Source: Polyangiales bacterium (lineage in GTDB: Bacteria > Myxococcota_A > Polyangia > Polyangiales > DASUME01). Taken from it: 40,641 nucleotides of DNA. The DNA is taken from assembly GCA_038257655.1 (NCBI GenBank), contig JBBSJC010000003.1, positions 1 to 40,641 on the forward strand, given 5' to 3'. This document shows, piece after piece, positions 6,213 through 24,550 of this stretch (position 1 is the first letter of the stretch; every line of letters starts with the position of its first letter). A program made the position numbers and the translations under genes. Under the pieces are notes generated by a model. It had not been told where the DNA came from and did not search any database. It was given only the letters and a program-made list of their open reading frames with translations.

Positions 6213-6250
6213 GGGATAAGGTCCTGGTAGCGATGGGAAATAGTAGGAAT

Positions 6251-6299: not shown

Positions 6300-6304
6300 T
6301 CGAA

Positions 6305-6710: not shown

Positions 6711-7004
6711 TCCCTCAATCCGACACGCAGGAGGCGTGGCAAAGGCGCCATTGAGAGCGTCGGCGATAGGCAGAGTCGGCGGCCACGATAAATGTGACGC
6801 CCTCGACGCCGTGGGGCGCGGGTTTTCCGAGATTCGTCGCGAAGACGAGCAATCTTACCGTCCGTGCGCTGGCAGTCTGAAACAGCCACAGCTCGGCCAA
6901 CTGCGACTTGTGTCTTAAAAATAGCTGACATACATGCTTCCCATCAGCGCGAGCTAGAATGCTTGCTCGGGCTTCGGTCCGACACGAAAGGTTGTACCGT
7001 GACC

Positions 7005-7664: not shown

Positions 7665-7722
7665 GCGAGAGCGCGGCGTAAGCAACCAGAAAGCGCGTAG
7701 TCGCGAATGACGCGCCGAGTGC

Positions 7723-8502: not shown

Positions 8503-8693
8503 GTTGTGTGATCCTCCATGCAGAGAGTAGCCCGTGCGCCGACCATGCGACAATCTGCGCGCGAGGGCGCGCCTGAATGCCCCGACTATCCGGTGCAGAT
8601 ACCGCCTCCGGCCAAGGCCCTTAGCTCGGTACGGGCACGCATGGACGCGCGAAAGGCGCAGCCGTCACAGCCCCCTCCAACTGAGCTTGTCTG

Positions 8694-11600
8694 CTAGGCG
8701 ATCTGACCTTCCAGCTGCGCTATCAACAGCGCCGCCTCTTCGGAATCAGGCGCAGCCTCTAGCGCTTTGCGTGCCCAGAGCAGTGCTCGTTTAGCTCCGC
8801 TGTGATGGATGGCGACGCGCGCCCGCCGCAGAAGCGCCTCACCGCGCGGCATGATCTCGGGCCCCTTGAGCAGAAGCACGCTCGTCAGGGCATTTTCTGC
8901 CACGGACCAGGCCTCGAGCTCCTCTGCGAGCACCGCCAGCTGAACCAGGATCGCGCGATTCGACGTGTCCGTATCTCGCGCCGCTTGCATCGTATTCAGC
9001 GCGGTCTCGTTGTCGCCTTGGGCACGCGCCACCTGCGAAAGCCGCAACAACAGCCGCGCCCGCGGCATCGAATGACCTTCGGCGCTCGGATCGACGAGCG
9101 TCTCGAGCAGCGTGCGCGCCTCGGCCAGGCGCTGTTGGCCTATCAGGGCGTCCGCCAATGCGATGCCGATATCGATGTCACCCGGTGCGGCGCTGTGCAG
9201 CTGCTGCAGCACCTCGGTGGCTTCGGTCGCTGCGCCCGCATCCAAGAAGTGCTGGACGGCGCGCGACATGCAACGCGTGCGCGCCTCGGCTTCAGGGAGT
9301 CGTGGCGCACGCTTCATCAACAGCTCGGCAATACTCAGATCATCCGAAACCGCGGTGAGCGCGCTTATTAGCGTCTCCTCGATCTCGAGTGACTCAGGCT
9401 GCATGCCATGGGCTAGCGTCAGCGCCGCACGAACCTCGGCGACGTCGTCCAGTTGTGGAATGAGCTGAGTAAGCTGTTGTGCGAGATCCGTGCGCAGCTC
9501 ATCTGTGACGTGGCAGAGCCGCGTCGCCAAGATGCGCGCAAGGTCGCTGGACCAGGAAAGCTCCGTATACAGCTCCGAGAGCATACTCAGCCCTTCGTCG
9601 CTCGCTGTTCCGCGTCCTAGCCAAGTTTCGATCAACTGGGCGGCCTCGGGCAGATCCCCCAGGCTGCGGCGCATGCTCGCCATGCGGAAGGTTAGGTCGC
9701 GCTCGGCAGCCTCGTCCTGGGCCTCGAGCGCGAGTAGGCGCGCGTCCTCGAGTGTCTGCAAAAGGTCAGATCCGAGACTCGTCGCTGCGAGCGCAAAGGC
9801 TGCCTGCAGGTCAGCCAGGCCTGCTTCGAGCTTGCTTTGCTGAAGCAGGGTCTTGCCTCGCAGGTGCAGCAGCGACGCGCGCTCCTCGTCATCGTCGCAA
9901 TGCGCTGCGGCGTGGGCGAGATGGCCCGATGCTTCGTCCATGCGTCCAAGCGTGAACAGGTCCAGTGCCAGCTCCTTTCGCAGGCTGCTGTCGTCGGGCA
10001 AGGCTTCAACTGCTTCGAGCAGTAGAGTGGCCGCGGTCCCGTGATCGTCGAGCCGCGCGCGCTGTAGCTGCGCCGCTTCGCGCAGGGTACGCACGCGCGA
10101 AGACACATCGCCTTCGTTGCGCGCGCTTTCGGCCAGCAGCTCGGCGAGCGCTTGTGCATCATCTTGGCGGCGGAGGATCTCGGTGAGCATGAGCACGATC
10201 CCCGCGTGTTGAGGGGCACGCTCGTGCGCCGTGCGTAGGACACGCAGCGCGGCGACCACGTCACCGCAGGTCTCGTAAAGGCTGGCAGCTTCGATCGAAA
10301 GCTCGGCACCATCGGCTATGGGGCGATGCGCCAACATCTGTTCGAGCACCTCCGCTCTTTCGTGTGCGTGCTCGTCGGCTGCGAGCCTGACAAGTAGCGC
10401 GGACCGGACCTCATCGTGATGTGGAGCGAGCATCAAAGCTTGTCGCAGCGCACGCACGGCCTGCGCTTCACGCGCGCCCTCTTCCACGTGCAGGTGGAGC
10501 GCGAGCGCGTAGCGCACGCACGCGTCAACCGCGCCGTCCGCGCACGTTTGCTCAAAGCGCAGCGCCAAATGGTCGAGCAGACGGTCCCACGCGGCGCTCT
10601 CCTGAAAGTACGAAATCAGGCGGTTCTCGGCCTCGATGTCGTCGGGTCGTAGGGCTACCGCTTTACACAGCAGCTCGCCGGCTTCTTGGTCTGTGGCGTC
10701 GTTGGTGAGCAACAGACAGGCGCGCTTTACGAGCAAGGCGGCGCGCAGCTCAGGACTGCTGCCAGCGGCATCGGCTCGCTCTAAAAGGATACCGAGCGCG
10801 GCGGCGTTGCCCTCTTCGGCACACAGCGCCGAAACTTGCAACAGCTGTGGCTCGCTGCAGTCGCGCGCCACGTCCGCAAACAGCGCGAGTAGCTCCGAAT
10901 CGGCCGCCTGCTCGCTCAGTGCGTTCAAGAGTACCCGGGCCGCGCGCATGGGCCTTGGCGCTTCAGCCAGCGCATCACGCATGCGGGCGAGGCCTTCGTT
11001 GCGCGTATCCTCCGCAGCCAAGCGCACCTCTGCCAGTCGATAGAGCACGTCCACACGTTCTTCGTTCGGCAGCTCTGCACCCCCTAGACCATCGAGCTTC
11101 GACAGTAAGGTCGTCTGAGCCTGCACCGCTTCCCGCGCGACGGCGACGCGCAACTGGGCGCGCCAGACATCGCTCTCGCGCACATGCGTCGCTTCCGCCT
11201 CGGAAAAGAGCGTCTGCGCGCCGTCGATGTTGTCCTCCGCGAAGTACAGCGCGCCGAGTCGCAGACACACTTCGCAACGCGCGTATCTGTCGCTCGGCCG
11301 CCGCGCACGCTCGCGCAGGCGCTCGAGTAAGGCGCGAAAGCGCGGCAGACAATCAGGCGTGCACGCCGTCTGCGCGGCATCGTGCAAACGCGGATCACTT
11401 GGGTCAAGCTCGATCGCAGCAAGCCGCAGCTCGATCGATTCGTCGCGTGTTTGCGGGCGAAGCTGCAGCAAGTCAGCGAGCGCATTCATCGCCAGGGCTC
11501 GCTCGGGATGACTCACCGCATGTGCCAGCTCCTGGCGCACGATCTGCTCGAGCAGCTCCGGCGTGCCGCGTTCGCGCAGGCTTTGCTTGATGCGCTCACA

Positions 11601-14600
11601 CTCAGGATCGCCAAAGCGTAAGGCCTCGAGGGCCGACTCGCGCAGGCTGCTCGCTTGGTCGGAGTCGCCGCGCGTCAGGGCAAGCTCGCTGAGCTCCAAC
11701 AGCACTTCGCTTACGCCGAGCGTGCGGCCGGTTGCGAGCACGATGGGTGTGCGCTTCGCTGCCAACAATAGCGACCGTAAGGCCCGTTCGCGGCGCGCTA
11801 GATCACCAGCCTCGGCCGCGCGTTCGGACAGGGCATACATGATCGCCACATCCGCCGACCGCATGTTGAGCGCAAGCTCGAGCTGGGCGCACGACTCTGA
11901 CAGGTCGCCTTCATCGCGCAGGATGTCGGCCAGCTTGACGTGCACGGCCGCGCGTTCGGAGGAGCGACGACGACCGAATTGCGCGAGCAGATACATCAGT
12001 ACCTGGCGCGCCTCATCGAAGCGACCGAGCGCGCGCAAGCCATCGGCCATGATGCCGCACAGCTCCGCGTCATCCGGCTGCAAACCGAGCGCAAGGTCGG
12101 CCACGGCCACCAACGCTTCCGGGTTTTCGAGCGTCGAGTGGTACAGACGCGCGGATTCGATCGCAAGCGTGGCACTTTCGGCGCGGTCTTGGGTTTCGCC
12201 CGCTGCGCGTGCCAAGACACCGGCCAGCTCCGCGTAGCGCTCACCCGCGCGCAGCTGCTCCGTGAGCAAAGTGCGCACCGCCAAATCAGCGGGAGCCTCG
12301 GCAAACGCGGTGTGTAAGGTTTCCAGGGCGGCCTCAACCTGCTGGGCGGCAAGCTGCGCCTGTGCAAGCTCGTGCAGCACGCGGGGTCGCTCGGTGGCGT
12401 CGGTCAGCGTCAGTCGGCGCGCAAGCCAGCGCGCGCTGCCCGCCTGATCCTCGAGTGCGCGACAGAGCCGTACCAGCTCATCTAACACCTGGGCATCGTC
12501 GCTGAGTGCTGCGACTTGCTCAAGCGCGTAGATCGCCTGCTCGCGATCCTGAAGCTTCTCTTCAGACAGCTCCGCGGCCTCTTGCCAGAGCGTGATCGCC
12601 AGCGCATCTTGTCCCGCTTCTGCCACTGCGCGGGCCTGTTTCGCCAGCAAGCTAAAGAGCTCGGGCAAACGATGCTTTTCGGTCAGCAGGGCGCACGCCG
12701 CCTCGAGCGAGTCGTGATGACCCGCATGCTCTTCGAGGTTGCCGAGCAGCATCACAAGGCGGGCGTCACGCTCTTCGAGCAAACCGGTCAACCTGACGAT
12801 CTCGAGACGTAAGGTTAGACGCGCTTCTACTGAGTCCGAAAGCGCAAGCTCGCGTTTGCGTAGCGCAAGCTGCTCCGGCACTCGTTCAAGACGCTGCGCA
12901 AGCGTCGCAAGCCAGCTTACGAGCTCCCGATCCCGCGGCTCTTGCGGCAGCACCGAAAGGCCGACGTGCAGCGCCTCGCTGAGCTGCCCTTCCTGTTCGA
13001 GAATGCGCGCGCTCTGTCGGCGTAAGCCTGCGCGTTGCGCCTCCGACAACGGAAGTCGCACTGCATCATCAAGCAAGTACAGGGCACGCGCTGCTTGCTT
13101 TGCGGCAAGCTCGAGCGGCACCAGTCGCTCCACCGCCCACAACACCCAGCGCTCGAAGTCGCCGCTTACCCCCTCGCGTGTCCACAGGTCCGCAGCGCGT
13201 CGGTAGAGGCGTGCCAGCGTCGCACGTTGATGGGCGGCATCGACGTTGAGTTCAATCAGCAGCTGCGCTGCCTCGATCAATGGCGCGAGCGTGTCGGGTG
13301 ACTGAGCATCCAGCGTGAGTAAGGTTTCAAAGAGTGCCTGGGTCGGTGCCAGTCGCTGAACTGCGGCGAGCATACTCAAGGCCTGGGCGCTGTTCGGTTG
13401 CAGCTTGAGTGCGCGCTGGGCCGCAACTTCTGCGCCGGGGGCGTCCGCGCACTGCTCAAGGCGCCAGCTTGCAAGTTGTAACGAAAGCTCGCAGTGCAGC
13501 GCCGGGGCCAGATCACTGCGGCTGCGCAGCGCCAGCGCAAACGCCTCGCACAGGCTGGGAAAAGCGCTCGCCGCCGTGGCTGCTGAAGCCAGACTCTCGA
13601 GCACCACCGGCTCGAGCCGCGAGCGCACGGCGCACGAGTGGAGCGCTGTGTCGCAGGCGAGGCGATAGGATCCCGCGAGCGCCGCACAGCGTACGAGCGC
13701 GTGCGCCTCGTAGGGTGCGAGTGGATGGACCGCGAGCACGACCTCGTAGGCCTCGGCTGCGCGTTTATAGTCGTTCAGGCGTTCGAACAAGCGACCAGCG
13801 GCCGCCGAAAGATCGGCTGCGCGAGGCCGATCAAAAGAAGCTGCTAGGGCAGCCCAGTGCAGCGCGCTTGCCGCTTCGCGCAAGTGTCCGGTGAGCTCCG
13901 CCAAGCGCAGCAACTCGCGCTGGGCGTGAACGTCTGCAGGCGCGCGAGGAAGCGCCTTGGCCACCAGCGTCAGGGCATGGCTGGGATCTGCGGCGCGCTG
14001 CTCCCACAGCTGCGCAACCTCGAACATACACAAAGCTTGCTGGGTCGGGTCGTCCGTCGCTGCCAAGCGCGCATCGAGCAGATCGATCCGCAGCTGCCAG
14101 TCGTCGGTTGCGATATAGGCCTGGGACAAGGCGCTTGTGACCTCTTGCGCGCAGCCCTTGATGCCCAGCAGCGCAGACAAACCGGAGCGCGCAGCGGCGC
14201 AGCCAGGCTCGAGCTCGAGGGCACGCCCATAGGCGCGCGCGGCCGCACCGTGATCTTCGAGCTCCAGCCGATGCACGTCGCCCAGTCGGCACAGGCGCGC
14301 CACCGATAACGTGCGCTCGCGGTCGGTCGCGCCTTCGAAGATGCGCGCGAGCTCGCAAAAGCGTTTGCTCTCGGTCATCAGCTCATCGAGCGCTTGCAAT
14401 AGATCCGGCTCGTCGCCGAACTCCTCGCGTACAGACAACCAGGTGTCGATGGCGGCGTCGAGATCGCGCAGCGCCGTCGCTTGCAGCGTCGCCACACGCG
14501 TGCGGTCTTGTCTGCGTTGCCGGGGCGTGGGTGCCACCTCGGCACGCTTCTGGAGCTGTGTAACTTCGAGGTCGTGGCGGCCCAGCTGTGCCGCGAGCTC

Positions 14601-16154
14601 GATCGATGCGCTGAGCGCTTCGAGGTCCGCGGCGTCATAGGCAAGCCACGTCTGCCATGCACCTAGGGCGCGCTCTAGATCGCCCGTCTCGTGCGCATGC
14701 TGCGCGATTTCGGAGAGCAGCAAACGCCGCCGATAGGGGCTCGCTTCGCCTTGCGCCAAGCGGTCGAGCACTGCGAGCTGCTCGATCGTGCGCCCAGTCC
14801 CGCGCAACAGACGCTCGAGCTGCCCGGCGGCTTCGCGCAGCTGGGCAGGCTGGGCATTCGCCAACGTGAGCACGCGCTGTCCGAGCGCGATCGCGGCATC
14901 GCGCTGAGCAAGGGGTTCGGCATGCACAGCCATCGCCGCGATCAGGAGCTGCGCTACCTGAGTATGATCCGCGGCAGCCTCGGCTGCGGACACCAGGGCT
15001 TCAGCGTGCGCGGCATGCTCTCCGCTCCGCTCAGCCAGGCGCTCTAGCTGCAGGCGCGCGTCGCCATCGCTCGGCTCAGCGCGCAACGCCTCGGCGTAGT
15101 GCGCCATCGCTGGGCGATCCTCAAAACGCGCCATCAAGCGCGCCGCGAGCTCCCGGCGCAGTCCAAGTTGCGTTGTATCGGGCGCAAAGCTCAACGAACG
15201 CTCAAGCGCCGCGATGGTCGCAAGCGGGCGGTCGGCGCTGTCGTGGTGCAAACGCAACAGTTGCAAGCTCGACAACCGCAGCGCGACGTCCGCTTCGGGC
15301 AGTGCGAGCACTCGCTCGAGCAACGCGCAGGCTTGATCGTCGCCGGGACGTCGTTCGAGCACGCCCGCAGCCTCGTGCAGCGCCTCTGCAGGCGCGGAGA
15401 GGTGATCGAGGTAGACGCGCGCGATGCGCAGGCGCAGCTCGCTTACCAGGCTTTCGGGCGTCGCCTCGAGCTGGGCTTGCCACAGTCCAATCAGCGGCTG
15501 CCATGCCTTTCGTTCAGACAACACGCGTTCGAGCGACGCACACAGCGCATGGGCGCTAGGGTCGAGCCTCAGCAGCTCACGCAGGTACTCGATCGCGCGC
15601 TCGGGGCGATCGGTGAAGTCTTTGGCGACGTGGGCTGCATCATCGAGCAGTTGCCGCCTGCGTGCGGGCGCAAGCCTGCCCAATAGCGCGCGGTCGTAGG
15701 CCTCGAGCAGGCTATCCCAGTGCTGGCCATCGGTGAGCTCACTCACGAGTTGATCAAACGCCCAGCCCGCATCCGGGCAGGTTTCGATCACGTGATCGAG
15801 CACGCGGCGCATCGCGGCTTCGTCATCGCCATACCAGCTGTCGTAGAAGCGAACCGCGCGCCGCCCTAGCTCCTCGCGCAGTGTGTCGGGCCGGGCAGGC
15901 GTCAACATCCTCAGGTATGCATCGGCCACCGGATCGGGCCTCTGCAGCGCCTCGCACAACAGCTCGAGTGTATCCCAGGCGCCAAAGTCTTCGGGCGCGT
16001 CCCGCACGGAGCGCAAGACGCCCACGAACTCGGCCTCGGTCTGCTGGGTTGGCTGCGCACGCAATCGCACCTGACTTGGCGCCGCGTACTGGCCGCTTGG
16101 CGGATGATCTTCGTAGGGGCCGGTGGCATCAGGACGTGCACGGGACTGGGTCAT
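8694..16154 (-). CDS. Giant tetratricopeptide-repeat protein (myxobacterial AgmK-like TPR solenoid), about 2486 aa
   Basis: One long ORF of Ala/Leu/Glu/Arg-rich helical repeats (e.g. AIEYLRELLRLDPS, YGRALELEPG, ARKALEAAPDS). Start placed at ATG 16154 based on the AAGGTGAGG SD and a sigma54 promoter just upstream. No signal peptide or TM seen. Confidence 0.85.
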   Translation of the reverse strand: MTQSRARPDATGPYEDHPPSGQYAAPSQVRLRAQPTQQTEAEFVGVLRSVRDAPEDFGAWDTLELLCEALQRPDPVADAYLRMLTPARPDTLREELGRRAVRFYDSWYGDDEAAMRRVLDHVIETCPDAGWAFDQLVSELTDGQHWDSLLEAYDRALLGRLAPARRRQLLDDAAHVAKDFTDRPERAIEYLRELLRLDPSAHALCASLERVLSERKAWQPLIGLWQAQLEATPESLVSELRLRIARVYLDHLSAPAEALHEAAGVLERRPGDDQACALLERVLALPEADVALRLSSLQLLRLHHDSADRPLATIAALERSLSFAPDTTQLGLRRELAARLMARFEDRPAMAHYAEALRAEPSDGDARLQLERLAERSGEHAAHAEALVSAAEAAADHTQVAQLLIAAMAVHAEPLAQRDAAIALGQRVLTLANAQPAQLREAAGQLERLLRGTGRTIEQLAVLDRLAQGEASPYRRRLLLSEIAQHAHETGDLERALGAWQTWLAYDAADLEALSASIELAAQLGRHDLEVTQLQKRAEVAPTPRQRRQDRTRVATLQATALRDLDAAIDTWLSVREEFGDEPDLLQALDELMTESKRFCELARIFEGATDRERTLSVARLCRLGDVHRLELEDHGAAARAYGRALELEPGCAAARSGLSALLGIKGCAQEVTSALSQAYIATDDWQLRIDLLDARLAATDDPTQQALCMFEVAQLWEQRAADPSHALTLVAKALPRAPADVHAQRELLRLAELTGHLREAASALHWAALAASFDRPRAADLSAAAGRLFERLNDYKRAAEAYEVVLAVHPLAPYEAHALVRCAALAGSYRLACDTALHSCAVRSRLEPVVLESLASAATAASAFPSLCEAFALALRSRSDLAPALHCELSLQLASWRLEQCADAPGAEVAAQRALKLQPNSAQALSMLAAVQRLAPTQALFETLLTLDAQSPDTLAPLIEAAQLLIELNVDAAHQRATLARLYRRAADLWTREGVSGDFERWVLWAVERLVPLELAAKQAARALYLLDDAVRLPLSEAQRAGLRRQSARILEQEGQLSEALHVGLSVLPQEPRDRELVSWLATLAQRLERVPEQLALRKRELALSDSVEARLTLRLEIVRLTGLLEERDARLVMLLGNLEEHAGHHDSLEAACALLTEKHRLPELFSLLAKQARAVAEAGQDALAITLWQEAAELSEEKLQDREQAIYALEQVAALSDDAQVLDELVRLCRALEDQAGSARWLARRLTLTDATERPRVLHELAQAQLAAQQVEAALETLHTAFAEAPADLAVRTLLTEQLRAGERYAELAGVLARAAGETQDRAESATLAIESARLYHSTLENPEALVAVADLALGLQPDDAELCGIMADGLRALGRFDEARQVLMYLLAQFGRRRSSERAAVHVKLADILRDEGDLSESCAQLELALNMRSADVAIMYALSERAAEAGDLARRERALRSLLLAAKRTPIVLATGRTLGVSEVLLELSELALTRGDSDQASSLRESALEALRFGDPECERIKQSLRERGTPELLEQIVRQELAHAVSHPERALAMNALADLLQLRPQTRDESIELRLAAIELDPSDPRLHDAAQTACTPDCLPRFRALLERLRERARRPSDRYARCEVCLRLGALYFAEDNIDGAQTLFSEAEATHVRESDVWRAQLRVAVAREAVQAQTTLLSKLDGLGGAELPNEERVDVLYRLAEVRLAAEDTRNEGLARMRDALAEAPRPMRAARVLLNALSEQAADSELLALFADVARDCSEPQLLQVSALCAEEGNAAALGILLERADAAGSSPELRAALLVKRACLLLTNDATDQEAGELLCKAVALRPDDIEAENRLISYFQESAAWDRLLDHLALRFEQTCADGAVDACVRYALALHLHVEEGAREAQAVRALRQALMLAPHHDEVRSALLVRLAADEHAHERAEVLEQMLAHRPIADGAELSIEAASLYETCGDVVAALRVLRTAHERAPQHAGIVLMLTEILRRQDDAQALAELLAESARNEGDVSSRVRTLREAAQLQRARLDDHGTAATLLLEAVEALPDDSSLRKELALDLFTLGRMDEASGHLAHAAAHCDDDEERASLLHLRGKTLLQQSKLEAGLADLQAAFALAATSLGSDLLQTLEDARLLALEAQDEAAERDLTFRMASMRRSLGDLPEAAQLIETWLGRGTASDEGLSMLSELYTELSWSSDLARILATRLCHVTDELRTDLAQQLTQLIPQLDDVAEVRAALTLAHGMQPESLEIEETLISALTAVSDDLSIAELLMKRAPRLPEAEARTRCMSRAVQHFLDAGAATEATEVLQQLHSAAPGDIDIGIALADALIGQQRLAEARTLLETLVDPSAEGHSMPRARLLLRLSQVARAQGDNETALNTMQAARDTDTSNRAILVQLAVLAEELEAWSVAENALTSVLLLKGPEIMPRGEALLRRARVAIHHSGAKRALLWARKALEAAPDSEEAALLIAQLEGQIA

Positions 16155-16185
16155 CGGGAGCCTCACCTTCGCGAGGCTGCCTACC

Positions 16186-16200
16186 GCAATGGCCATGCCA
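16186..16200 (-). promoter_or_regulatory. Sigma54 (-24/-12) promoter for the giant TPR gene
   Basis: Minus strand TGGCATG-GCCA-TTGC versus consensus TGGCAYR-N4-TTGC, with exact GG-N10-GC spacing. The predicted TSS near 16174 lies just before the SD and ATG 16154. Confidence 0.75.
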
Positions 16201-16265
16201 TCCCAATTTCGCATCCCTTCGTGAGCATTCACGCGGAGAATCCGACATGGGACCCTGATGCACTG

Positions 16266-16297
16266 GGGGCAACGACGACCACAGTTGTCGTTGCCCC
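16266..16297. repeat. Perfect 11-bp inverted repeat (candidate enhancer-binding-protein site or RNA hairpin)
   Basis: GGGGCAACGAC (16266-16276) -N10- GTCGTTGCCCC (16287-16297), roughly -90 to -125 from the predicted sigma54 TSS. Confidence 0.6.
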
Positions 16298-16444
16298 GTT
16301 GGCAACTACAAACGTATCGCCTGCCGCAGGATCTGCGCAGGCTGGGCACATGCTCCTACCTTACCTGCCCTGAACCTGACGGTGAGCCGTCGGCGCGCGG
16401 TGTCGCGAACCTTACGGTATGATATCGCGCTGAAGGTTCGCCAA

Positions 16445-17134
16445 CTAGTGCACCGAATCGAGTGCGCTCTCCGTGATGAGGCGCAGACCGAAGCTCAGGT
16501 GCTGTACGTCTTTCGGCATCGCTGTCAGCACTGGGATCTCGCGCCAAGCCATTTCTGAAGGCGCGAGCACGAAGTGCAGACGCGTCGTGACCGCTTCGGA
16601 AAGCCGAGTACCTTTGCCCGTGGCCAGGCGGATCATGATGGCACCTCCTGGGACGGGCACAGGCTCGACCGCAAGCGGCTCAAGCTTACCTTCGTCACGC
16701 TCCACGAAGGCGCGCGCCACGACGCCCTGCTCGACCCGCGTCGCGGGACGCAAAAGCAGCTCGAGCTCGCGACCGAGCACGTAAGTCCGTAACTCGCCTG
16801 CAGGTAGCTCGTCCACCGGCTCGGCGTCGCGTTGGGCGTCGCGATGCGAAGCGTCAGGTGGGGGCAAGACGAGCGCATAGGCGGGAAGCTCGCTCAGCTC
16901 GGCGCGCGGCCAAAACACCACCAGCGCCGCTGCTGCGACAGACAGCGCGGCGGCGACCATCGGCCAAACACGCACTTTGCGAGTAGGAAGTTGCACCACC
17001 GGAGCGAGCGCGGGAGTTGGTATTGCTGCTGCTGTGTCCGCCTTCCCTAAGCGCGCGAGCACCGCGTCGGCGAGCGCCCTCTCCTCTTCTTCGCTCAACG
17101 GGCCGAAGGGATCGCTGTCCACTTCCGCTGCCAT
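16445..17134 (-). CDS. Single-pass membrane protein with anti-sigma-like layout, 229 aa
   Basis: GGAG RBS before ATG 17134; short acidic helical N-terminus (PLSEEEERALADAVLARL), Pro-rich linker VVQLPTRK, TM (WPMVAAALSVAAAALVVFW), beta-rich periplasmic domain. Confidence 0.6.
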   Translation of the reverse strand: MAAEVDSDPFGPLSEEEERALADAVLARLGKADTAAAIPTPALAPVVQLPTRKVRVWPMVAAALSVAAAALVVFWPRAELSELPAYALVLPPPDASHRDAQRDAEPVDELPAGELRTYVLGRELELLLRPATRVEQGVVARAFVERDEGKLEPLAVEPVPVPGGAIMIRLATGKGTRLSEAVTTRLHFVLAPSEMAWREIPVLTAMPKDVQHLSFGLRLITESALDSVH

Positions 17135-17267
17135 ACTCTTCTCCTGCTCGCGCAGCGGCTCGCAAGCCCTGGCAGGTGACGTAGCCCTGGCACAGCGGGG
17201 CACGGTAGCACCAATGTCTCAGTTCCCAACACTGAGTGTGCGCAGGGTGCGTGCGTCTGACGGCAAT

Positions 17268-18149
17268 CTAGCTTATGCGCTGCTGACGTTGCGTGCTCGT
17301 CCCGTTAGACGCATTTGCAGACGCTGACATGCCGCGATGTAGCAGCGCGGGCGGCGCGATACCGTGCTCACGAAACGCGGTGAGCACGCGCTCGGTGACA
17401 TCGGTCTGAAAGGCGCTTTCGTACTTCACATCGAGAACGTAGGCCTTGGCGCGCAGACGCGTGGCGAAGTAGCTCTCGTGTACAAGCTGGCTTACCCAGA
17501 CCACCCACGGCTTCTTACTGTACACGTAGCGACAGCTGGTCACGGCTTCGGAGACGAGTTGTTTGGCGAGCGCGAAGTCTTGGTCTGCGCCGATGTAGAA
17601 GTCCATCTGGATCAGCATATCGAGCGCGCCCCAGTTACCCGAAGACACCATGTCGGTGAGGAACTTGTTATTCGGGATGGTGACCACGTTGTCGTCGAGG
17701 GTCACAAGACGAACGGAGCGCAGTCCGATCGCCGTGATCTCACCGTATGCCCCCTCGAAGCTGACGCGGTCACCTACCTGAAACGGACGATCGACGATGA
17801 TGATAATGCCCGCCAGGATCGACGCGGCCAAGTCTTTGAGGGCAAAGCCGATGGTGACCGCGGCGGTGCCCGTGATCGCGAGCAGCACCTCGCGCGACAA
17901 ACGCACCGACACGCTGACCGCGAGTAAGATCCCGCCGATATACAATGCAAATCGCAGCAGCGTCGCGACCTGCGCCAGTTGCAAGCGTCGCTCCGGGATG
18001 CGCTTGCCCACGCGCTGCAACGTGCCGGTCGAGAAACTCACGATGAACCAGGTCACGAGCAACACGACCACGCCCGCTGCGACACCGGAAACCTGAATCG
18101 CATCGAAGATGCTTGCGCCGCCGCCGGCGTTTGCTTGGCTGGGATCCAT
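17268..18149 (-). CDS. mscS: Small-conductance mechanosensitive channel, minimal 3-TM MscS family
   Basis: IGFALKDLAASILAGIIIIVDRPFQVGDRVSFEGAYGEITAIGLRSVRLVTLDDNVVTIPN; AAGGAG RBS; 21 bp downstream of the NTPase gene. Confidence 0.92.
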   Translation of the reverse strand: MDPSQANAGGGASIFDAIQVSGVAAGVVVLLVTWFIVSFSTGTLQRVGKRIPERRLQLAQVATLLRFALYIGGILLAVSVSVRLSREVLLAITGTAAVTIGFALKDLAASILAGIIIIVDRPFQVGDRVSFEGAYGEITAIGLRSVRLVTLDDNVVTIPNNKFLTDMVSSGNWGALDMLIQMDFYIGADQDFALAKQLVSEAVTSCRYVYSKKPWVVWVSQLVHESYFATRLRAKAYVLDVKYESAFQTDVTERVLTAFREHGIAPPALLHRGMSASANASNGTSTQRQQRIS

Positions 18150-18170
18150 GGCTGCTCCTTGCTACTTTCG

Positions 18171-21100
18171 TTACGACTCGATCAGGTGGTTGCGACGCAG
18201 GAAGCGCACGGAGGCAGGCCACCAACGCGTGGCGACGGAGTGCAGCGTACCAGCGCGCTCGAGCACACCGAGCTCACCCATACGCTGCATCGCTTCCGCC
18301 ACCGCGAGCGGGGGAAATCGCAGCGCCAGCGCGACATCTTGCTGGGTTATCGCGCCATGCCAGAGCACTGACGCCAGCACGAACTTCTCGTCTTCTTCGA
18401 GCAAGTCCAAGGGACGCGCGTTAGGCGAGGGGAACAGTCGCACGCGTGCGCGATGGCGACTCTCGGGCACGAGCGAGTCGTGCCAGGCCTGCAAGGCGGA
18501 ACGTGGCGAGCCCTCGGCGTAGTCCCAGATCAGCCGGTTGTAGTCGCGGGCGGTCGAGAGCAACTGGGCTTCTGCCGCTAAGCCATCGAGCTTTTCGACT
18601 ACCAAGCCATCGTAAGTCACGGACAGCCCTGCGGCCTCTGTGCGGCGCTGTAGGAGCTCCTCGATCTCTAGCTCAGTCCAGGGCGACAGCCGCACCACCT
18701 GACGAAATACGTCTTTTCCGCCGCAAATCCAGGCGATGAATTCGTAGGCGTAGTGCGAGCACGACACGACCCAGAATACGTGATCACCCGTACGCTCGAT
18801 GATCTCCGCAAACGCGCGAAAGCCGTCGAGGCCTCCGATATTGCGCAGAAACCACATGTGCACGTCATCGACCAGCACCACCTGACGTTCACCCTTCCGT
18901 AAGGCTGCGATAAGCTCGTCCGAGCTTTCGACCTCACCGAGCTCAAGCGCTGTCGAAAGCGTCTGCACGACGCCCGTAACGCTCGCGCTGCGCACAGTCG
19001 GCGACACGCTGCGCGTTACTAGCTTATTTTCCTTTGCTTGGTGCTGGGCCGCGCGCAGCCAGGTGCTCTTGCCAAAGCCCGAACGACCGACCACGAGACA
19101 GGCGCCTACGCTCTTCTTGTGCGGCCACTGCTCCAAAGCGCTCGCAAGCGCATCGAGCCCCGGAAAGCGAGCTGTCAGTAGCGTGGGGTCCTCGACTGGC
19201 TCTTGGGTGAGGCAGCGCTTGATGTCCGCATGAATCTCAACAGTAAGGTCTGGGACGTCGGATGCGCCCACAGCCTGACGTTCCAGGCGCCTGCGAAACA
19301 GGTAAGCGAGCGCGCGACGGGATTGCTCAAAGTCGAGCACAAACCGTTGCAGCGAACGCCACAGGGCCGCCCCCAGCACGACCGCAAGCGCTGCTATCGC
19401 TACGAAAAAGCCATACCAGCGCTCACGGGTGGCGGACACGGCGTCAGCGAGCGCACCGGTCGGCTTACGCCGCAGATACTCCTCGATGATGTCCTCGCGC
19501 CACCAGCGGATCAGACCGTAAGCGATGGGAACGCTGCCCACCCAGGCAAAGCGCAGCACCAGGTGATACAAATACCCCTTACCGAGCATCGCCGCCGAGC
19601 CGACGAGAATGACCGCGAGTGCGAAGCAATAGCGACCCACCAGCCGTACGGATCGTAAGGCGCGCGCGCCGCGTTCCTCGTCGACACCAGCGACGCCGCT
19701 GCTCGTAGCCAACGCGAGCGAGCGATGAGCTATCGTAAAGGCGATTCGATACCAGGCGTAAGCGAGCGCGCCCACGTAGACCACCTGGATCACGTTGGCG
19801 TAGGGCGCGAGCAACCAGGCGCCGATCACCAGCACGAGACCGAGCCAGAGCAGATCGAGATAGACGGCGTCGAGGACCAGCACCAGCCTGCGCAGGCTTC
19901 TTGCCAGCCGCATACTGCGCGTGAGCCTTACTATTAGCGCCTTGCTGCCCGTGCGCAGCCGCACGCGCGAGCGACGCGCGTAGGCAAAGGCGTAGATCGC
20001 GAGCAGCACTGCCACCGCTCGCAGCAGCGCGTCACCGAGCACGAAGGGATCGCGGAAGCGATTGACCCAGTTGCGCAGCATCTTCTCACGCGCGAGCCCA
20101 GCCCACCGGACAGCGAGGCTCATGTGCGTGATTTCACGCTGGAGCTGGGCGAGCCCTTCGCGACCAAAGCCAAGCACACTCCCGCGTTTATCGAGGCTGA
20201 CCTGATCGAGCAGGCCGATGCGCAGCTGGTTTAGCTTTTGCTCGTTCGCGACCAGGCGATTGAGGCGCGTCCAGGCGAGGTCGCGATACTCTTCTTCGAG
20301 GGTCTCGCCAGACTTTGCGACCACCGCCGCGAGCTTGGTAAGGTCAGCCCGTGCCTGCTCGAGCTCCGGCTCGGACGCTAGAAGTAACGAAGGGGCTCCC
20401 GAATACGAAGGGACCGGTGCAGGCGCGCGGTAGTCATCGATCTGCGCGCTGACCTGTTTTCTGAGTGCCTGCAGCTCCGCGACCACGTCGTCATAGAGCC
20501 TATCTGCCTGGGCGGAACGGGCGGCCACCGCCGCCGCCTGCGCGACGATCGCCTCCAGCTTGGCACTGCCCGCGACAACCGCTCGCTCCTCGTGCACGCG
20601 CTTCTCAAGTAAGGGCTGGCGCAGCTCGGCTAGCTGACCACGGACGCCTTCGAGGATCGCACGCTCCTGGGCGATCGCGCGCCCTGCCTCAGTCTTGGCC
20701 TGCTGCGCTCGGACTAACGCGCGCTGTCGCTCAAGCTCGCTGCGGCGTACCTCCTCCGCTGTGGTTTTACTCTCCACATCCTGTTGCGCCCGCTCCTCAG
20801 CGACGCGTACGACCTCCGCATCCGCGGCAACCATCGCCTGTCGTTCGCCTGGCGATGCACGCAGGATCGATAGCTTGGCATCGAGCACTTCGAGGCGCGC
20901 CGCCTCCAGGCGCACCGCTTCGGGCACGTTCGACTCGCCCAGCATGGTCGCGAGTACGAAGGGTGGCTGTTCTGCCTCCTTGCCCTTTGCTTTCTCGCGG
21001 GATGCGGCGAGCAGTGTCAACTCTTGCTCAATCTCGCTGCGCAAGGCCTGCGCCTCAGTTTCGAGTGCTTTGGCGGCCTTGGCCACGGCAGCTTCATCCG

Positions 21101-21383
21101 CGAGCGGGATGCCCAGTAGGTCGGCCGCCCGCACCTGCTCGACGGGTTGCTTGCTCGCAAAGGCGCGTAGGGCACTAGCGTGCTGCGCAAGCTCCGTACG
21201 CTGCAGGTCGAGCTTGGCCGACTCTTGATCGCTGGCTCCGGCATCTCGCGCGGGAGTGCTGGTGCTTGTGTCCTGGGCGTGCGCTGGGCTGAGAACGATC
21301 GAAGGCGAAACGAAGCGCAGGATCAGCGTCAGGCAAAACCACCAGGGCAAGCCACGGAACGAGCACACTCGTGTCGGTATCAT
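18171..21383 (-). CDS. Secreted coiled-coil / multi-TM / P-loop NTPase (STAND/AAA+-like) / winged-helix protein, about 1070 aa
   Basis: Signal peptide ending AHA-QD; about 400-aa coiled-coil region; several TM helices; Walker A GRSGFGKST; Walker B VVLVDDVH; LSPWTELEIEELL; AEGSPR (GxP); C-terminal wHTH-like segment. Start uncertain (21383 or 21404). Confidence 0.8.
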   Translation of the reverse strand: MIPTRVCSFRGLPWWFCLTLILRFVSPSIVLSPAHAQDTSTSTPARDAGASDQESAKLDLQRTELAQHASALRAFASKQPVEQVRAADLLGIPLADEAAVAKAAKALETEAQALRSEIEQELTLLAASREKAKGKEAEQPPFVLATMLGESNVPEAVRLEAARLEVLDAKLSILRASPGERQAMVAADAEVVRVAEERAQQDVESKTTAEEVRRSELERQRALVRAQQAKTEAGRAIAQERAILEGVRGQLAELRQPLLEKRVHEERAVVAGSAKLEAIVAQAAAVAARSAQADRLYDDVVAELQALRKQVSAQIDDYRAPAPVPSYSGAPSLLLASEPELEQARADLTKLAAVVAKSGETLEEEYRDLAWTRLNRLVANEQKLNQLRIGLLDQVSLDKRGSVLGFGREGLAQLQREITHMSLAVRWAGLAREKMLRNWVNRFRDPFVLGDALLRAVAVLLAIYAFAYARRSRVRLRTGSKALIVRLTRSMRLARSLRRLVLVLDAVYLDLLWLGLVLVIGAWLLAPYANVIQVVYVGALAYAWYRIAFTIAHRSLALATSSGVAGVDEERGARALRSVRLVGRYCFALAVILVGSAAMLGKGYLYHLVLRFAWVGSVPIAYGLIRWWREDIIEEYLRRKPTGALADAVSATRERWYGFFVAIAALAVVLGAALWRSLQRFVLDFEQSRRALAYLFRRRLERQAVGASDVPDLTVEIHADIKRCLTQEPVEDPTLLTARFPGLDALASALEQWPHKKSVGACLVVGRSGFGKSTWLRAAQHQAKENKLVTRSVSPTVRSASVTGVVQTLSTALELGEVESSDELIAALRKGERQVVLVDDVHMWFLRNIGGLDGFRAFAEIIERTGDHVFWVVSCSHYAYEFIAWICGGKDVFRQVVRLSPWTELEIEELLQRRTEAAGLSVTYDGLVVEKLDGLAAEAQLLSTARDYNRLIWDYAEGSPRSALQAWHDSLVPESRHRARVRLFPSPNARPLDLLEEDEKFVLASVLWHGAITQQDVALALRFPPLAVAEAMQRMGELGVLERAGTLHSVATRWWPASVRFLRRNHLIES

Positions 21384-22045
21384 CGACGTTGCCCTTCTTC
21401 CCATGACTCGATAGCTCCCGCGACCGTTGCAAAGGGCCGGCTTCCACGCCGACGCAGCTGTATGCAACGCTTTGTTTTCTCGCGCCTGCACGTAGGCTCG
21501 GTCCTACCACAAACCCGTGGTCAAAATGGCTGAAAGCGCGCCGCACCGGGGCGTTCGGGGGCCGCCACGCGACGCCGTGTCGAGAACTGTGTAAGCCGGC
21601 AACAAGCTACTAGCAAACCGCAGTTGGCTTGCGAAGCCGACCTTACGCTGTGATTCTGAATCGGCTCGAAGCTCGTCATAAGTACATGAAGTATGCGGAT
21701 GGCCAGCCCGAGCAGGTCGCAGACTCCGTTGCACGCGCGGTGGAGCAGCAAAGCCGCGGCCCCGACATCGCGTCACCGCCGTCGCCTCGGTGTTCCCGTT
21801 GATCAAGCTAGTCGGGCGCGAACGCGCGCTCGATCGTGTGCACAAGCTGATCGCGGGGATGGCGACCTGACCTGCTCAGGCGCGCCGAACGTGGAGCTCA
21901 TGGGCCCGATGCTCGCCGACAAGCACCAGGTGGGTGACCACGTCAACGTGAGTGAGAAGTGTAAGGTTTCCACGTACGAAGAGCGACGTTGGGTCAGGGC
22001 CTGAACGGCTTTTCCCCCCGGCAAATCGGTGATTTGTCTCCGTGT

Positions 22046-22062
22046 CGGCAAGAATTTTGCCG
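22046..22062 (+). promoter_or_regulatory. Sigma54-like promoter that is also a palindrome
   Basis: CGGCAAG-AATT-TTGC has GG-N10-GC spacing and lies about 25 nt before ATG 22085. It is also CGGCAA-N5-TTGCCG, so it reads GG-N10-GC on both strands. A second palindrome CAAATC-GGT-GATTTG is at 22022-22036. Confidence 0.5.
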
Positions 22063-22084
22063 CACCACTGGCCGAGCATGCCTT

Positions 22085-24550
22085 ATGGTGAGCGGTATGT
22101 CGTATCTCGATTCTGCACTGTCGTTGCCCCTTTCAACTAAGACATCCCAGCTCAGGCATCTGCCCTATGCAGCGTGCTTTCTTTGCTTGGTGTTGACCGC
22201 TTGCTCCGGTGGCGGTGGCGGCGGAACCACCGACCAGGGCAGCAACGCAGGGGGCGATGGCGGAGGTGATTCCGCGAACGGCGGCGCGAACGCGGGTACC
22301 AACGCCGGTGCCAACGCCGGCTCTGGAAACAACGGCAGCACCGAAGGGGGTGGCAATGCCCCCACTGATGCTCCGTTCGATGTGCTGCCCGTGGAGCTGC
22401 AGACGATCGACGTCGACCAGGGCACCAGCATGCCGGTGGTCGAATTCACCGCATCACAGGGAGGACGACCTGTCAGTGCGGCCTTCTCGGTCGACCGTGG
22501 CGACGCTGCGACCATTGCCGCAGGCCCCGCTGTCAGCGCTACCTTTCAACCGACCGGCCGTGTCGGAGGCCTCGTTACCGTGACTGCCGGGTACCAAGGC
22601 AGCACGATCGAGCGTCAGGTTTTGATTCGGTTACGGGCGACGCAAAACGGCGCAACCGGCGGACAGACGGCACAGATTGCCGATGACATCGGCGAGCTGA
22701 CCTCCGGTGGTGGCGTCGGCGGTGTGGGCGGTGAGGGCCTTGGCAGCGCTGTAAGCGATGCGGCGGCAAGCGCTGCACTGGACGCCCCTACCTCCGATGG
22801 CACTGCAGAGGGCTTGCGTTTGCTCTACCCGTACGAGGGCACCGTGTGGCCCCGCGGTCTGCCGGCCCCGCTCTTGATGTGGCAGTGGTCGAATAGCGAC
22901 GCTGATGCGGTACGGGTCGAGCTCGAGACGAGCAGCGGATCTTACCGTTGGTCGGGCACCTTCGGTCGGCCGGCGATCCTCACCCAAACGGGCGGCGCCT
23001 TTGTGCGGCACCCGATCCCCCAAGACGTGTGGGATACCGCGACCCAAACCGCCGGTGGCAGCACACCTACCGGTGCGCCCGATCGGGTGACCGTCAAGCT
23101 TACGGTTGTCAAAGATGGCGTCGCTGCTGGGCCGATTCGCCAAACCTGGACGATCGCCCCCGCGCGGCTGTCGGGCACGATTTACTACAACTCCTACGGC
23201 ACGCAGCTCGCCAAGAACTCCGCCGACAGCGCGGTCGGCGGAGATAAGAAGTTCGGAGGCGCCGTGCTGTCGATCCGCGTCGGCGACACCGGTCCCGTAC
23301 TCGCGGCGGGTGCGACCGGCAATGAGAGCCAATGTCGGGTCTGTCATTCGGTATCAGCGAACGGGTCGCGACTGATCGCTTCGTACAATGGCGGAAGCAA
23401 CGCAGCCTCGTACGCGCTATCGCCCACCGGTATCGCGCAAACTGGACTGACCGTGAGCACCTCGTTTCCCGGAATCTATCCTGACGGCAGCTTCGCTCTC
23501 ACCACGGGCGGGAAGATCTTGGAGATGCCCGCGGCCGCGAGCGCGATTACGCCGGCAGGGCTTGCAGACGTAGCCACGCGAATAGGCACGCCCATGTTCG
23601 ACCCCGCGGGGAAGCTCGTCGCATTCAATCCCATGGCCGGCCCCAGCCTGACCGATCCCACCAAAAAGCTCGTGGTGATGGACTTCGCGCCCGCGACACG
23701 CACCTTTTCCAATGCGCGCACCGTGGTCGACAACAGCGCGCTCCCCGCTGCACAACGTCCGGGCTGGCCGGCCTTTTTGCCCGACGGCGAATCCCTGGTC
23801 TTTCATCAACAGAGTAAGGCCGGAGGCGACGGGAACGCGGACGGTGCTCTGTTTACGCGTAAGGGAGCGAAGGCTCAGATCCATTGGACGAGCACCACGG
23901 ATGCAAGCCAGGTCACGACGCTCAACGCGCTCAATGGGCTCGATCCGCAAGGGGTGTCATACCTTCCGAAGCTCGATGCACCGTTCTCCCTAACCTGCAC
24001 CGCCGACGGTCAATCCGTGGGCGGCATCGAGGCTGACCACGCAGATGACGCCAACCTCAATTACGAGCCAACGGTCAACCCGGTGGCATCCGGTGGATAC
24101 GCCTGGATCGTGTTTGCAAGCCGGCGCATGTACGGCAGCGTGGCGACCATTCCACCCTTCTGCTCTGATCCGCGCGGCGTTGACTTGATCACGAACATCA
24201 CCCCCAAAAAGCTGTGGGTGGCGGCGATCGATCTCAGTGCAAAGCCGGGCGCGGACGCGAGCCATCCGGCGTTCTATCTGCCCGCGCAGGAGCTGCTCGC
24301 GGGCAACTCGCGCGGCTTCTGGGTGCTCGACCCCTGTCGCGATGATGGGCAGTCGTGCGAGAGCGGTGACCAATGCTGCAACGGCTTCTGTACCGCCAAC
24401 GCGAGCGACGGCGCGCTTCAGTGCGGCAACATGCCACCCGATACTGGATGCTCAGCCCAGGGCGACAAGTGCACGCTGGATTCAGATTGCTGCGAAGCTA
24501 CAAATCGCTGCGTAGGTGGCTTCTGTTCGCTGTCTGTCATCGTGCAGTAA
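22085..24550 (+). CDS. Large lipoprotein: Gly/Asn linker, Ig-like region, CxxCH, TolB/PD40-like beta-propeller, C-terminal Cys-knot-like repeats
   Basis: Lipobox VLTA-C; LLYPYEGTVWPRGLPAP; CRVCH; PD40-like motifs (FPGIYPDG, TPMFDPAG, WPAFLPDGESLVF, WIVFASRR); two C-C-CC-C-C modules. Start 22085 or 22097. Confidence 0.82.
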   Translation: MVSGMSYLDSALSLPLSTKTSQLRHLPYAACFLCLVLTACSGGGGGGTTDQGSNAGGDGGGDSANGGANAGTNAGANAGSGNNGSTEGGGNAPTDAPFDVLPVELQTIDVDQGTSMPVVEFTASQGGRPVSAAFSVDRGDAATIAAGPAVSATFQPTGRVGGLVTVTAGYQGSTIERQVLIRLRATQNGATGGQTAQIADDIGELTSGGGVGGVGGEGLGSAVSDAAASAALDAPTSDGTAEGLRLLYPYEGTVWPRGLPAPLLMWQWSNSDADAVRVELETSSGSYRWSGTFGRPAILTQTGGAFVRHPIPQDVWDTATQTAGGSTPTGAPDRVTVKLTVVKDGVAAGPIRQTWTIAPARLSGTIYYNSYGTQLAKNSADSAVGGDKKFGGAVLSIRVGDTGPVLAAGATGNESQCRVCHSVSANGSRLIASYNGGSNAASYALSPTGIAQTGLTVSTSFPGIYPDGSFALTTGGKILEMPAAASAITPAGLADVATRIGTPMFDPAGKLVAFNPMAGPSLTDPTKKLVVMDFAPATRTFSNARTVVDNSALPAAQRPGWPAFLPDGESLVFHQQSKAGGDGNADGALFTRKGAKAQIHWTSTTDASQVTTLNALNGLDPQGVSYLPKLDAPFSLTCTADGQSVGGIEADHADDANLNYEPTVNPVASGGYAWIVFASRRMYGSVATIPPFCSDPRGVDLITNITPKKLWVAAIDLSAKPGADASHPAFYLPAQELLAGNSRGFWVLDPCRDDGQSCESGDQCCNGFCTANASDGALQCGNMPPDTGCSAQGDKCTLDSDCCEATNRCVGGFCSLSVIVQ

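Follow-up and report, generated by a model that had tools for sequence, protein, structure and literature searches.

In textbook terms, channels of the MscS family are gated by membrane tension only, and the known modifiers of this behavior are fused to the channel itself: a periplasmic ring in MscK and MscM and a cyclic nucleotide monophosphate (cNMP)-binding domain in the bCNG channels. MscK is also modulated by external K+, and we know of no nucleotide that acts on it. In this study, we analyzed a stretch of 40,641 nucleotides (the window) from a Polyangiales bacterium (contig JBBSJC010000003.1 of assembly GCA_038257655.1), in which two genes on the minus strand, a large one upstream and a small one downstream, encode a membrane protein ending in a nucleoside triphosphatase (NTPase) module (P0001) and a minimal MscS-family channel (P0002). 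The pair is a widespread, hitherto undescribed two-subunit MscS-type system, the accessory subunit of which consists of an MscK-like outer half and a STAND/Orc-like switch. Its best reading, to which we assign a probability of roughly 0.55, is a channel complex with nucleotide-dependent control of the cytoplasmic cage. No published description of such an MscS–NTPase pair was found in searches of the open literature. In a 2026 review of MscS-like gating (PMC13591265), the words "ATPase", "partner" and "operon" do not occur, and the bCNG channels are named there as nucleotide-linked MscS-like members. They likewise couple an MscS-family pore to a cytoplasmic nucleotide-binding module; however, this cNMP-binding module of the bCNG channels is part of the channel polypeptide, whereas the P-loop NTPase of the present system is located on a separate membrane-spanning subunit.

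The sequence-only reading of the window had proposed a two-gene module, and both open reading frames (ORFs) are indeed present, separated by 21 nucleotides, with the MscS gene having a Shine-Dalgarno sequence of its own (AAGGAG). The conservation of the pair across genomes, on which that proposal depended, was borne out in three sets of loci that overlap in part: a set from relatives (41 genomes), a phylum set and a multi-phylum set. A full-length homologue of P0001 is encoded in 12 of the 41 relatives' genomes, the window's own included, and at all 11 full-length loci of the relatives the adjoining downstream gene, in the same orientation, encodes an MscS homologue. In the phylum, 146 of the 401 genomes searched with a profile had matches at E ≤ 1e-20, and the channel was found downstream at each of the best 29 loci. 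When the scan was carried out with one genome per species, 78 of the 80 loci had the channel downstream within −17 to +212 nucleotides; as for the two exceptions, one is at a contig end and the other (L081) has its channel 5.5 kb downstream. At L081, seven intervening ORFs without a Pfam match occupy positions 8748-14267. The 80 loci span Polyangia, Acidobacteriota, Gammaproteobacteria, Burkholderiales, Chloroflexota, Krumholzibacteriia, and Methylomirabilota, and the cultured gammaproteobacterial carriers are Paraperlucidibaca baekdonensis DSM 26022 and Solimonas terrae KIS83-12. The reverse search recovered partner-type MscS proteins (E ≤ 1e-75, 46-66% identity) in exactly the same 12 of 41 genomes and at adjoining coordinates, the next-best MscS match in the other genomes being a 34%-identical paralogue. 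The pairing is thus near-obligatory. It is also restricted to two genes: no fusion of the large protein with MscS occurs among 108 pairs, and there is no third conserved gene, since the next-largest cluster of flanking ORFs covers 15 of the 80 loci, all of them from close relatives. In a representative library of 1.84 billion proteins, the family comprises 4257, 3236 and 1954 clusters at E ≤ 1e-3, 1e-10 and 1e-30, respectively. An N-terminally extended member of 1758 amino acids (aa) was seen at positions 3448-8721 of another locus (L065), where the frame is open for 2105 aa in the matching genome and AAA_22 is the only Pfam match.

The two proteins diverge at different rates. Sixteen of the 80 loci were dropped from the comparison for incomplete matches, and over the remaining 64 pairs the mean pairwise identity was 58% for the pore and 34% for the large protein. 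Their identity matrices correlate with r = 0.87. Such co-divergence is expected of any two linked genes, and it would therefore also be found if the two proteins acted independently and were merely co-transcribed. However, independent action is hardly credible given that the adjacency is kept at 78 of 80 loci across phyla amid otherwise unrelated flanks, that the two genes accompany each other in 12 of 12 genomes and neither stands alone in any of the 41, that the channels form a dedicated MscS subfamily (50-72% identical across phyla compared with 17-22% to other MscS proteins), and that the NTPase module is paired with MscS again in a second family, as described below.

P0002 matches the MscS family (PF00924) with 65.6 bits against a cut-off of 20.2 (E 4.4e-18), and its three hydrophobic helices align with the transmembrane (TM) helices TM1-3 of E. 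coli MscS (YggB). It shares with this protein and other 3-TM MscS channels the size, the three TM helices, the β and αβ subdomains and the hydrophobic gate positions. It differs from YggB, to which it is 22% identical, in a small insertion after the β domain, in a V/F gate instead of L105/L109, and in an Asp for G113: by alignment, V98 and F102 stand at the gate positions L105 and L109, and the invariant D106 sits at the G113 hinge. The same alignment places V98 and F102 at V921 and F925 of MscK, which are its gate residues according to PMC9653487, so that the MscK-type V/F gate in the pore helix is common to MscK and P0002. K105-D106 align with Q928-E929 of MscK, where E. coli MscS has Q112-G113, and G94, G101 and G114 are conserved in the pore-lining helix. 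The matches of P0002 in NCBIfam are all below threshold; those to MscK (62.2 vs 991, NF008438) and MscM (54.8 vs 809, NF008180) cover the C-terminal core only, and the MscS core is among the other matches. Since the pore-lining helix retains the gate residues, P0002 probably conducts. Unlike other 3-TM MscS proteins, the P0002 type was never found without its partner gene in the genomes searched.

The large protein was modeled with AlphaFold2 (AF2) from 25 homologues, with a mean predicted local distance difference test score (pLDDT) of 83.8. From the N terminus to the C terminus, the model has a low-confidence signal-like segment, long helices up to about residue 445, hydrophobic helices at 446-707 and the NTPase module. 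The P-loop core of this module is five-stranded (strands 761-766, 789-793, 834-838, 869-876 and 895-898); after it come a helical lid (aa 904-970) and, at aa ~990-1064, a winged helix. The motifs quoted in the sequence-only reading, GRSGFGKST (aa 766-774), VVLVDD (835-840) and EGSPR (957-961), are all present and are conserved among the 25 homologues. In Walker A, G769, G771, K772 and [ST]773 are found in all 25 and G766 in 24; in Walker B (hhhhD[DE]), D839 is found in all 25 and D840 in 18; and in the lid, R914, W953, G958 and P960 are invariant, with R961 in 17. The winged-helix H1009, which we take to be the counterpart of the "MHD" His of STAND proteins, is kept in 23.

The class of this module is indicated less sharply by the databases. 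All Pfam matches of P0001 are below the gathering score and lie at aa 743-843: AAA_22 (22.4 vs 27), NB-ARC (16.3 vs 23.5), nSTAND_NTPase5 (14.7 vs 34), nSTAND3 (13.6 vs 27.2), and also AAA_16 and TniB. Searched member by member, all 25 homologues match AAA_22 (best E 6.1e-9), seven match AAA_16, three match NACHT (E ≤ 0.01) and one matches ORC-CDC6-like, while single members match HTH_24, MarR_2 and HTH_Crp_2 in the winged-helix part. With Foldseek, the Orc1/Cdc6-like core, lid and winged helix have structural matches, the top rows being Orc1/Cdc6 proteins (1fnn_A, E 1.1e-7; 1w5t_A, 2.4e-7; 2v1u_A, 9.2e-7; 2qby_A, 5.7e-6), and RuvB, Apaf-1 (3shf, 2.9e-6), CED-4 and two archaeal ATPases come close behind. 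STAND NTPases (Apaf-1/CED-4, NB-ARC, NACHT) and the Orc1/Cdc6 AAA+ proteins have the same P-loop core, helical lid and winged helix, and the large protein shares with this class the hhhhDD Walker B, the GxP motif and the winged-helix His. Unlike in these proteins, the NTPase module terminates a polytopic membrane protein and is followed by no C-terminal repeat or sensor domain, P0001 ending six residues past the last helix of the winged helix. The module is thus to be classed as a STAND/Orc1-Cdc6-type switch; hhhhDD and GxP favor STAND, whereas the fold ranking favors Orc1/Cdc6, with no clear distinction between the two classes by these tools. The earlier label "STAND-like" is therefore a fair one as regards Walker A, hhhhDD, GxP and H1009, but the higher rank of Orc1/Cdc6 (1e-7) over Apaf-1 (2.9e-6), the sub-threshold Pfam scores and the absence of a repeat sensor qualify it.

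An interaction of the two proteins had been anticipated, and structure prediction agrees with it. The complex of aa 440-1070 of P0001 with P0002, one monomer of each and an alignment of 24 rows, was predicted with a score of 0.64, compared with 0.00 for the best of three controls. Of 157 solved complexes, 116 attain this score mark, as do 2 of 215 mismatched pairs; because the alignments were our own, these counts apply only approximately. At least 94% of the contacts are shared between the runs, and the partner pLDDT is at least 76. As no solved complex of this type is known to us, the model is unlikely to have reproduced a memorized structure. On the side of the large protein, the predicted interface is formed by the loop 847-852 just past Walker B and the helix 881-886 of the NTPase and by residues 1001-1005, 1020-1022 and the tail 1066-1069 of the winged-helix part; on the MscS side, by residues 176, 198-215 and 239-258, that is, by the two outer helices of the αβ subdomain. 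W215 and R254 of the channel are invariant, D240 and D250 are kept in 23 of 24 sequences, and R847 (23 of 25), F1001 and L1067 of the large protein are invariant or nearly so. The NTPase and winged helix are thus predicted to contact the cytoplasmic cage of MscS. In MscM, the cytoplasmic extension of TM7 touches the αβ subdomain and gates the lateral fenestrations (PMC13503660).

Binding of this kind does not by itself imply gating. An AAA+/STAND-type large protein could bind the channel as a scaffold for assembly, anchoring or localization that inserts or oligomerizes the MscS heptamer or tethers it, for example, to the envelope via its periplasmic helices, and has no acute control over the gate. 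The pairing and the predicted binding would apply equally, the periplasmic helices extend over about 400 aa, and the Orc1/Cdc6-like AAA+ proteins at the top of the Foldseek rows belong to a group known for loaders and assembly switches. We nevertheless consider this explanation unlikely: the MscS-family channels of E. coli assemble without helpers, the invariance of W215 and R254 at the predicted contact suggests a lasting functional interface, and the precedent of MscM (PMC13503660) ties this contact surface to gating.

The winged helix also permits the signal to be read in the reverse direction, with the MscS-like protein as a tension sensor and the NTPase/winged-helix part as a membrane-tethered output, for example a DNA-binding regulator that stress would activate or set free. 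Single members of the family match MarR_2, HTH_24 and HTH_Crp_2 in this part, a paralogue has a MarR match, and the top structural matches are Orc1/Cdc6 proteins. However, the winged helix belongs to the predicted protein-protein interface and in STAND proteins packs on the NTPase, no conserved target gene is located nearby, and the gate residues are retained, so that the channel probably conducts. Reverse signaling is therefore very improbable, and control of the pore by the NTPase remains the preferred reading.

It had further been proposed that the large protein corresponds to the accessory half of a split MscK. E. coli MscK (KefA) and MscM (YjeP), which have 11 TM helices, resemble the present system in the order of the parts: a signal peptide (signal-like in P0001), a helical domain of 400-500 aa in the periplasm (presumed in P0001) and a peripheral bundle of six TM helices at nearly equal spacing. 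They differ from it in that the present system is made of two polypeptides, lacks TM7-8, and alone carries an NTPase and winged helix on the accessory half. To compare the two, an MscK-family profile that stops short of the MscS core was built from E. coli MscK and 18 ORFs of the phylum with an MscS_TM match. Profile-profile alignment with hhalign matched aa 95-631 co-linearly to MscK 128-682 over 492 columns (91.5%, E 8.5e-7, score 66.7). The reversed template scored 31.5, 25 shuffles of 40-column blocks scored 26.3 on average (standard deviation [SD] 4.0, maximum 33.4), and 25 shuffles of 100-column blocks scored 30.3 (SD 4.8, maximum 40.8). These controls imply that the MscK signal resides in the order and spacing of the parts. 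The spacing can be followed in the hydrophobic peaks, which lie at 22, 458, 515, 543, 590, 616 and 666 in P0001 (spacing 57/28/47/26/50) and at 22, 511, 566, ~595, ~640, 667 and 702 in E. coli MscK (55/29/45/26/35); in MscK, TM1-6 form a peripheral bundle (PMC9653487). Structural alignment with VIA-align superimposed model residues 54-229 (aa 453-628) on residues 504-682 of MscK (7uw5_A) with Z 7.0 and a root mean square deviation of 5.1 Å over 143 aligned residues, and the MscK helices paired in this way are those paired by hhalign. The wide VIA-align search returned generic helical rows only (Z 7-8.8), among them MscK, AtMSL1, Flycatcher1 and 3udc, the last of which we take to be MscS of T. 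tengcongensis. The nearest Atlas clusters for aa 1-730, to be taken as a lead only, are MscS_TM, MscS_porin, DUF3772 and MscM at 0.76-0.77. We read the N-half as probably equivalent in architecture to the MscK accessory half, and common descent of the two is plausible and, in our view, somewhat favored.

The ion-transport context of the module became apparent from a paralogue in the same genome. On contig C188 (locus L146), four genes (5-1276, 1273-2718, 2684-6871 and 6855-7739) encode, in this order, TrkA, TrkH, a 1395-aa Na_H_Exchanger::NTPase fusion and, overlapping with it, a 294-aa MscS-like protein. In the fusion, a long helical linker joins the Na_H_Exchanger domain (aa 52-431) to the NTPase and winged helix; this last part aligns with P0001 over 249 aa at 25% identity (E 9e-14) and retains GAGKTS and LLDD, and the MscS-like protein scores 21.0 bits against 20.2 for PF00924. 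This family was sampled at 11 further loci in other genomes of the order. The antiporter::NTPase fusion was present at 10 of them by Pfam, an MscS-like gene lay directly downstream at eight (six above the Pfam cut-off, two by tblastn only), trkH lay directly upstream at six, and the winged helix of one paralogue had a MarR match. KefC-type CPA2 antiporters likewise have a cytoplasmic regulatory domain, and the paralogue, in which the nucleotide-binding regulator is fused to the antiporter, is also located next to K+ transport genes. It differs from KefC in that a STAND/Orc-like NTPase takes the place of the KTN/RCK domain and that its gene is succeeded by one for a dedicated MscS-like protein. 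In the main family, the flanks at 12 sampled loci are heterogeneous, and the next genes are ion-transport genes at three. In Paraperlucidibaca baekdonensis (L132, 9994-12904), the start of a TrkA_N K+ channel gene overlaps the stop of the MscS gene, and two more MscS genes follow; a locus in a Burkholderiales metagenome-assembled genome (MAG) has Ion_trans and Na_H_Exchanger genes next to the pair, and one in a Pseudomonadales MAG has a CitMHS+TrkA_C transporter gene.

This context bears on the possibility that the pair is an anti-phage or conflict module, in which a STAND-like sensor of infection or envelope damage would open the MscS pore, depolarizing or draining the cell, and so bring about abortive infection. 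A STAND-like switch with hhhhDD and GxP would suit such a role, as would a self-contained two-gene unit with variable flanks that is patchy, diverges fast within a genus and occurs in several phyla; the defense-like neighbors at the 12 loci are one TIR_2 gene and one D12 methylase gene, each at a single locus. However, P0001, P0002 and the downstream 252-aa ORF have no match in PADLOC-DB 2.0 (E ≤ 0.1), the flanks of the 12 loci are mostly metabolic or ion-transport genes and include no integrases or defense islands, the paralogue sits inside a trkA-trkH-antiporter operon, and the pore is the slowly evolving half of the pair, unlike in typical arms-race effector-sensor pairs. The Trk/antiporter and flank context argues for ion homeostasis rather than defense, which we regard as quite unlikely; the suggestion of a sensor-pore pair finds no support in this sense.

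Returning to the channel complex, P0002 would be its pore, a minimal 3-TM MscS core with a cytoplasmic cage, and P0001 its dedicated accessory subunit, in which the periplasmic domain and the six helices would correspond to the peripheral half (TM1-6) of MscK and MscM and the cytoplasmic end may act as a STAND/Orc1-Cdc6-like NTP-binding switch on the cage. The nucleotide state, possibly together with a periplasmic or membrane signal transmitted via the N-half, would set the conformation of the cage or of TM3b, and membrane tension would thereby cease to be the sole determinant of conduction and solute release. Physiologically, the complex would probably serve ion (probably K+) and osmolyte homeostasis. 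The anatomy, the near-obligatory pairing, the conservation of the NTP-binding motifs and the Trk/antiporter context of the paralogue are seen directly in the data, and the interface is predicted; we infer the gating control, the direction of the regulation and this role, and a 7:7 stoichiometry is a guess.

Several findings weigh against this interpretation. The residues at the predicted interface are only slightly better conserved than the domains in which they lie (entropy 1.07 vs 1.13 for MscS and 1.59 vs 1.90 for the NTPase), and the prediction is a single model run on monomers, whereas MscS is a heptamer. A TM-TM contact, to be expected of a split MscK, was not reported, which according to the tool is not evidence of absence. 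The distribution is patchy: the pair was found in 4 of 10 genomes of the window's genus, the search of a single-contig genome with 98% completeness yielded no copy, and the copies within the genus are 39-48% (large protein) and 65-66% (MscS) identical. Because of this patchiness and divergence, the pair is to be seen as an accessory module, which is probably mobile over evolutionary time; the patchy distribution is as compatible with an accessory and possibly transferred module as with a housekeeping one. With regard to MscK, the periplasmic region alone (score 17.7, E 0.26) and the TM region alone (21.5, E 0.054) gave no significant hhalign match, alignment of the family with the single E. 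coli MscK sequence gave 0.15%, and a VIA-align Z of 7 is within the noise range of the tool for helical bundles. The Pfam families MscS_TM (PF12794) and MscS_porin (PF12795) were not detected in P0001 (E ≤ 0.1) or in any of the 25 members (E ≤ 0.01), and searches of the N-half in Pfam, NCBIfam and PDB sequences returned nothing except the P-loop. Foldseek with the model of the TM domain (pLDDT 83.8) found no match at E ≤ 0.001 (best E 1.3). The idea of a split MscK therefore retains moderate support: the hhalign match, the TM spacing, the weak VIA-align match and the V/F gate residues stand on one side, and the missing Pfam families, the non-significant sub-regions, the empty Foldseek search and a predicted contact that is cytoplasmic and not TM-TM on the other.

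The topology of the large protein is a further difficulty. A signal peptide, a helical N-terminal part and a multi-TM bundle had been described for it. A hydrophobic peak at aa 19-24 is common to the whole family, aa 1-36 look like a signal peptide, and the N-terminal part is all-helical in the AF2 model; the six hydrophobic helices are likewise present, the sixth (center 666) extending as a basic helix to aa 707, but their parity misfits a cytoplasmic NTPase. If the N-domain is exported and all six helices cross the membrane fully, the NTPase comes to lie in the periplasm, which conflicts with the intact NTP-binding motifs and the predicted contact with the cytoplasmic cage. The K/R-rich segments 472-498, 554-577, 626-659 and 682-720 all look cytoplasmic and two short loops look periplasmic, and hydrophobicity combined with positive-inside counting yielded no odd number of crossings. 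Moreover, two AF2 models disagree on residues 491-561, which form a single helix in one of them and a hairpin in the other. The least costly resolution would be that the helix 660-681 is not a full crossing. A cytoplasmic N-terminal domain was considered and rejected, because it places the K/R-rich loop 472-498 outside and ignores the signal-like N terminus.

The coordinates of the two genes and their parts are compiled in Table 1. The window is contig C3 of a source genome of 8.2 Mb in 847 contigs that is 89% complete. The large protein has 1070 aa when read from the ATG at 21383 and 1077 aa when the ATG at 21404 is taken as its start; the frame stays open up to a GTG at 21491. Since an identical database protein (P0003, 100% identity to P0001) has 1077 aa, the called start is the ATG at 21404, and the true start is probably seven codons upstream of Met 21383.

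Table 1. Coordinates of the paired genes and of the parts of the large protein in the window. Residues are numbered throughout as in P0001, counted from the Met at 21383 (1070 aa).
Feature	Position	Strand	Remarks
Accessory/NTPase subunit gene	18171..21404 (or ..21383)	-	stop TAA 18171-18173
Signal-peptide-like N terminus, aa 1-36	21276..21383	-	basic start, hydrophobic stretch, AHA-Q
All-helical region, aa 37-445, presumed periplasmic	20049..21275	-	AF2 helices; co-linear with MscK periplasmic domain
Membrane region, aa 446-707	19263..20048	-	six hydrophobic helices centered at 458, 515, 543, 590, 616, 666
P-loop NTPase core, aa 740-900	18684..19166	-	Walker A 766-773, Walker B 835-840
Helical lid, aa 901-985	18429..18683	-	invariant R914; W953/G958/P960 "GxP(R)" motif
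Winged helix and C-terminal tail, aa 986-1070	18174..18428	-	H1009 in 23/25 members
Shine-Dalgarno AAGGAG	18155..18160	-	inside the 21-nt gap, 5 nt ahead of the MscS ATG
Pore subunit gene (P0002)	17268..18149	-	293 aa, 3-TM MscS-family channel

In the window, the MscS gene is directly followed, also on the minus strand, by a 252-aa ORF without a family match (16445-17203) and a gene for a 2551-aa TPR-repeat protein (8694-16349), and on the opposite strand there is an 853-aa ORF (21989-24550) with a lipoprotein-like N terminus, a Gly/Asn-rich low-complexity stretch and a Cys-rich C terminus, for which Pfam gave nothing above the cut-off. These and the other neighbors do not recur beside the pair at the other loci searched. 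A class II lanthipeptide cluster occupies positions 3-6212 on the minus strand, with genes for a LanM-type synthetase (DUF4135 and LANC_like, 1074 aa) and for two HlyD-family proteins; its gene for a C39-peptidase ABC exporter runs past the end of the window. On the plus strand, positions 31297-34406 encode adjacent proteins with DUF1592/DUF1588/DUF1587/DUF1585/DUF1595 (575 aa) and DUF1552 (461 aa), a pair typical of planctomycete-type "PSD/PSCyt" genes. There is also a second channel pair in the window: the gene for a GluR0-like ligand-gated K+ channel of 386 aa (SBP_bac_3, Lig_chan and Ion_trans_2; 37658-38818, minus strand) overlaps by 4 nucleotides the end of an upstream gene for a 457-aa MscS-family protein (38815-40188, minus strand).

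If the proposed reading is correct, a bacterial release valve would respond to energy or nucleotide state as well, through a separate and obligatory NTP-binding subunit, and the finding that the cytoplasmic cage serves as a gate in MscM (PMC13503660) would be extended to a second system. The large size of the family and its cultured and harmless carriers, P. baekdonensis DSM 26022 and S. terrae KIS83-12, make the question directly testable. Taking the main family and the paralogue together, we tentatively consider a more far-reaching possibility, which is doubtful at present: a ring of NTPases might clamp the seven-fold cage, such that the fenestrations follow ATP/ADP and a periplasmic signal, and the NTPase/winged-helix part might be a portable adaptor. 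If this were true, the pair would represent the first mechanosensitive-channel family gated by a P-loop nucleotide switch, and the same adaptor would couple an MscS valve either to an MscK-like half or, in the Trk operon, to a cation/proton antiporter. In that case, a single nucleotide-timed machine would handle the uptake of K+, its exchange and its emergency release.

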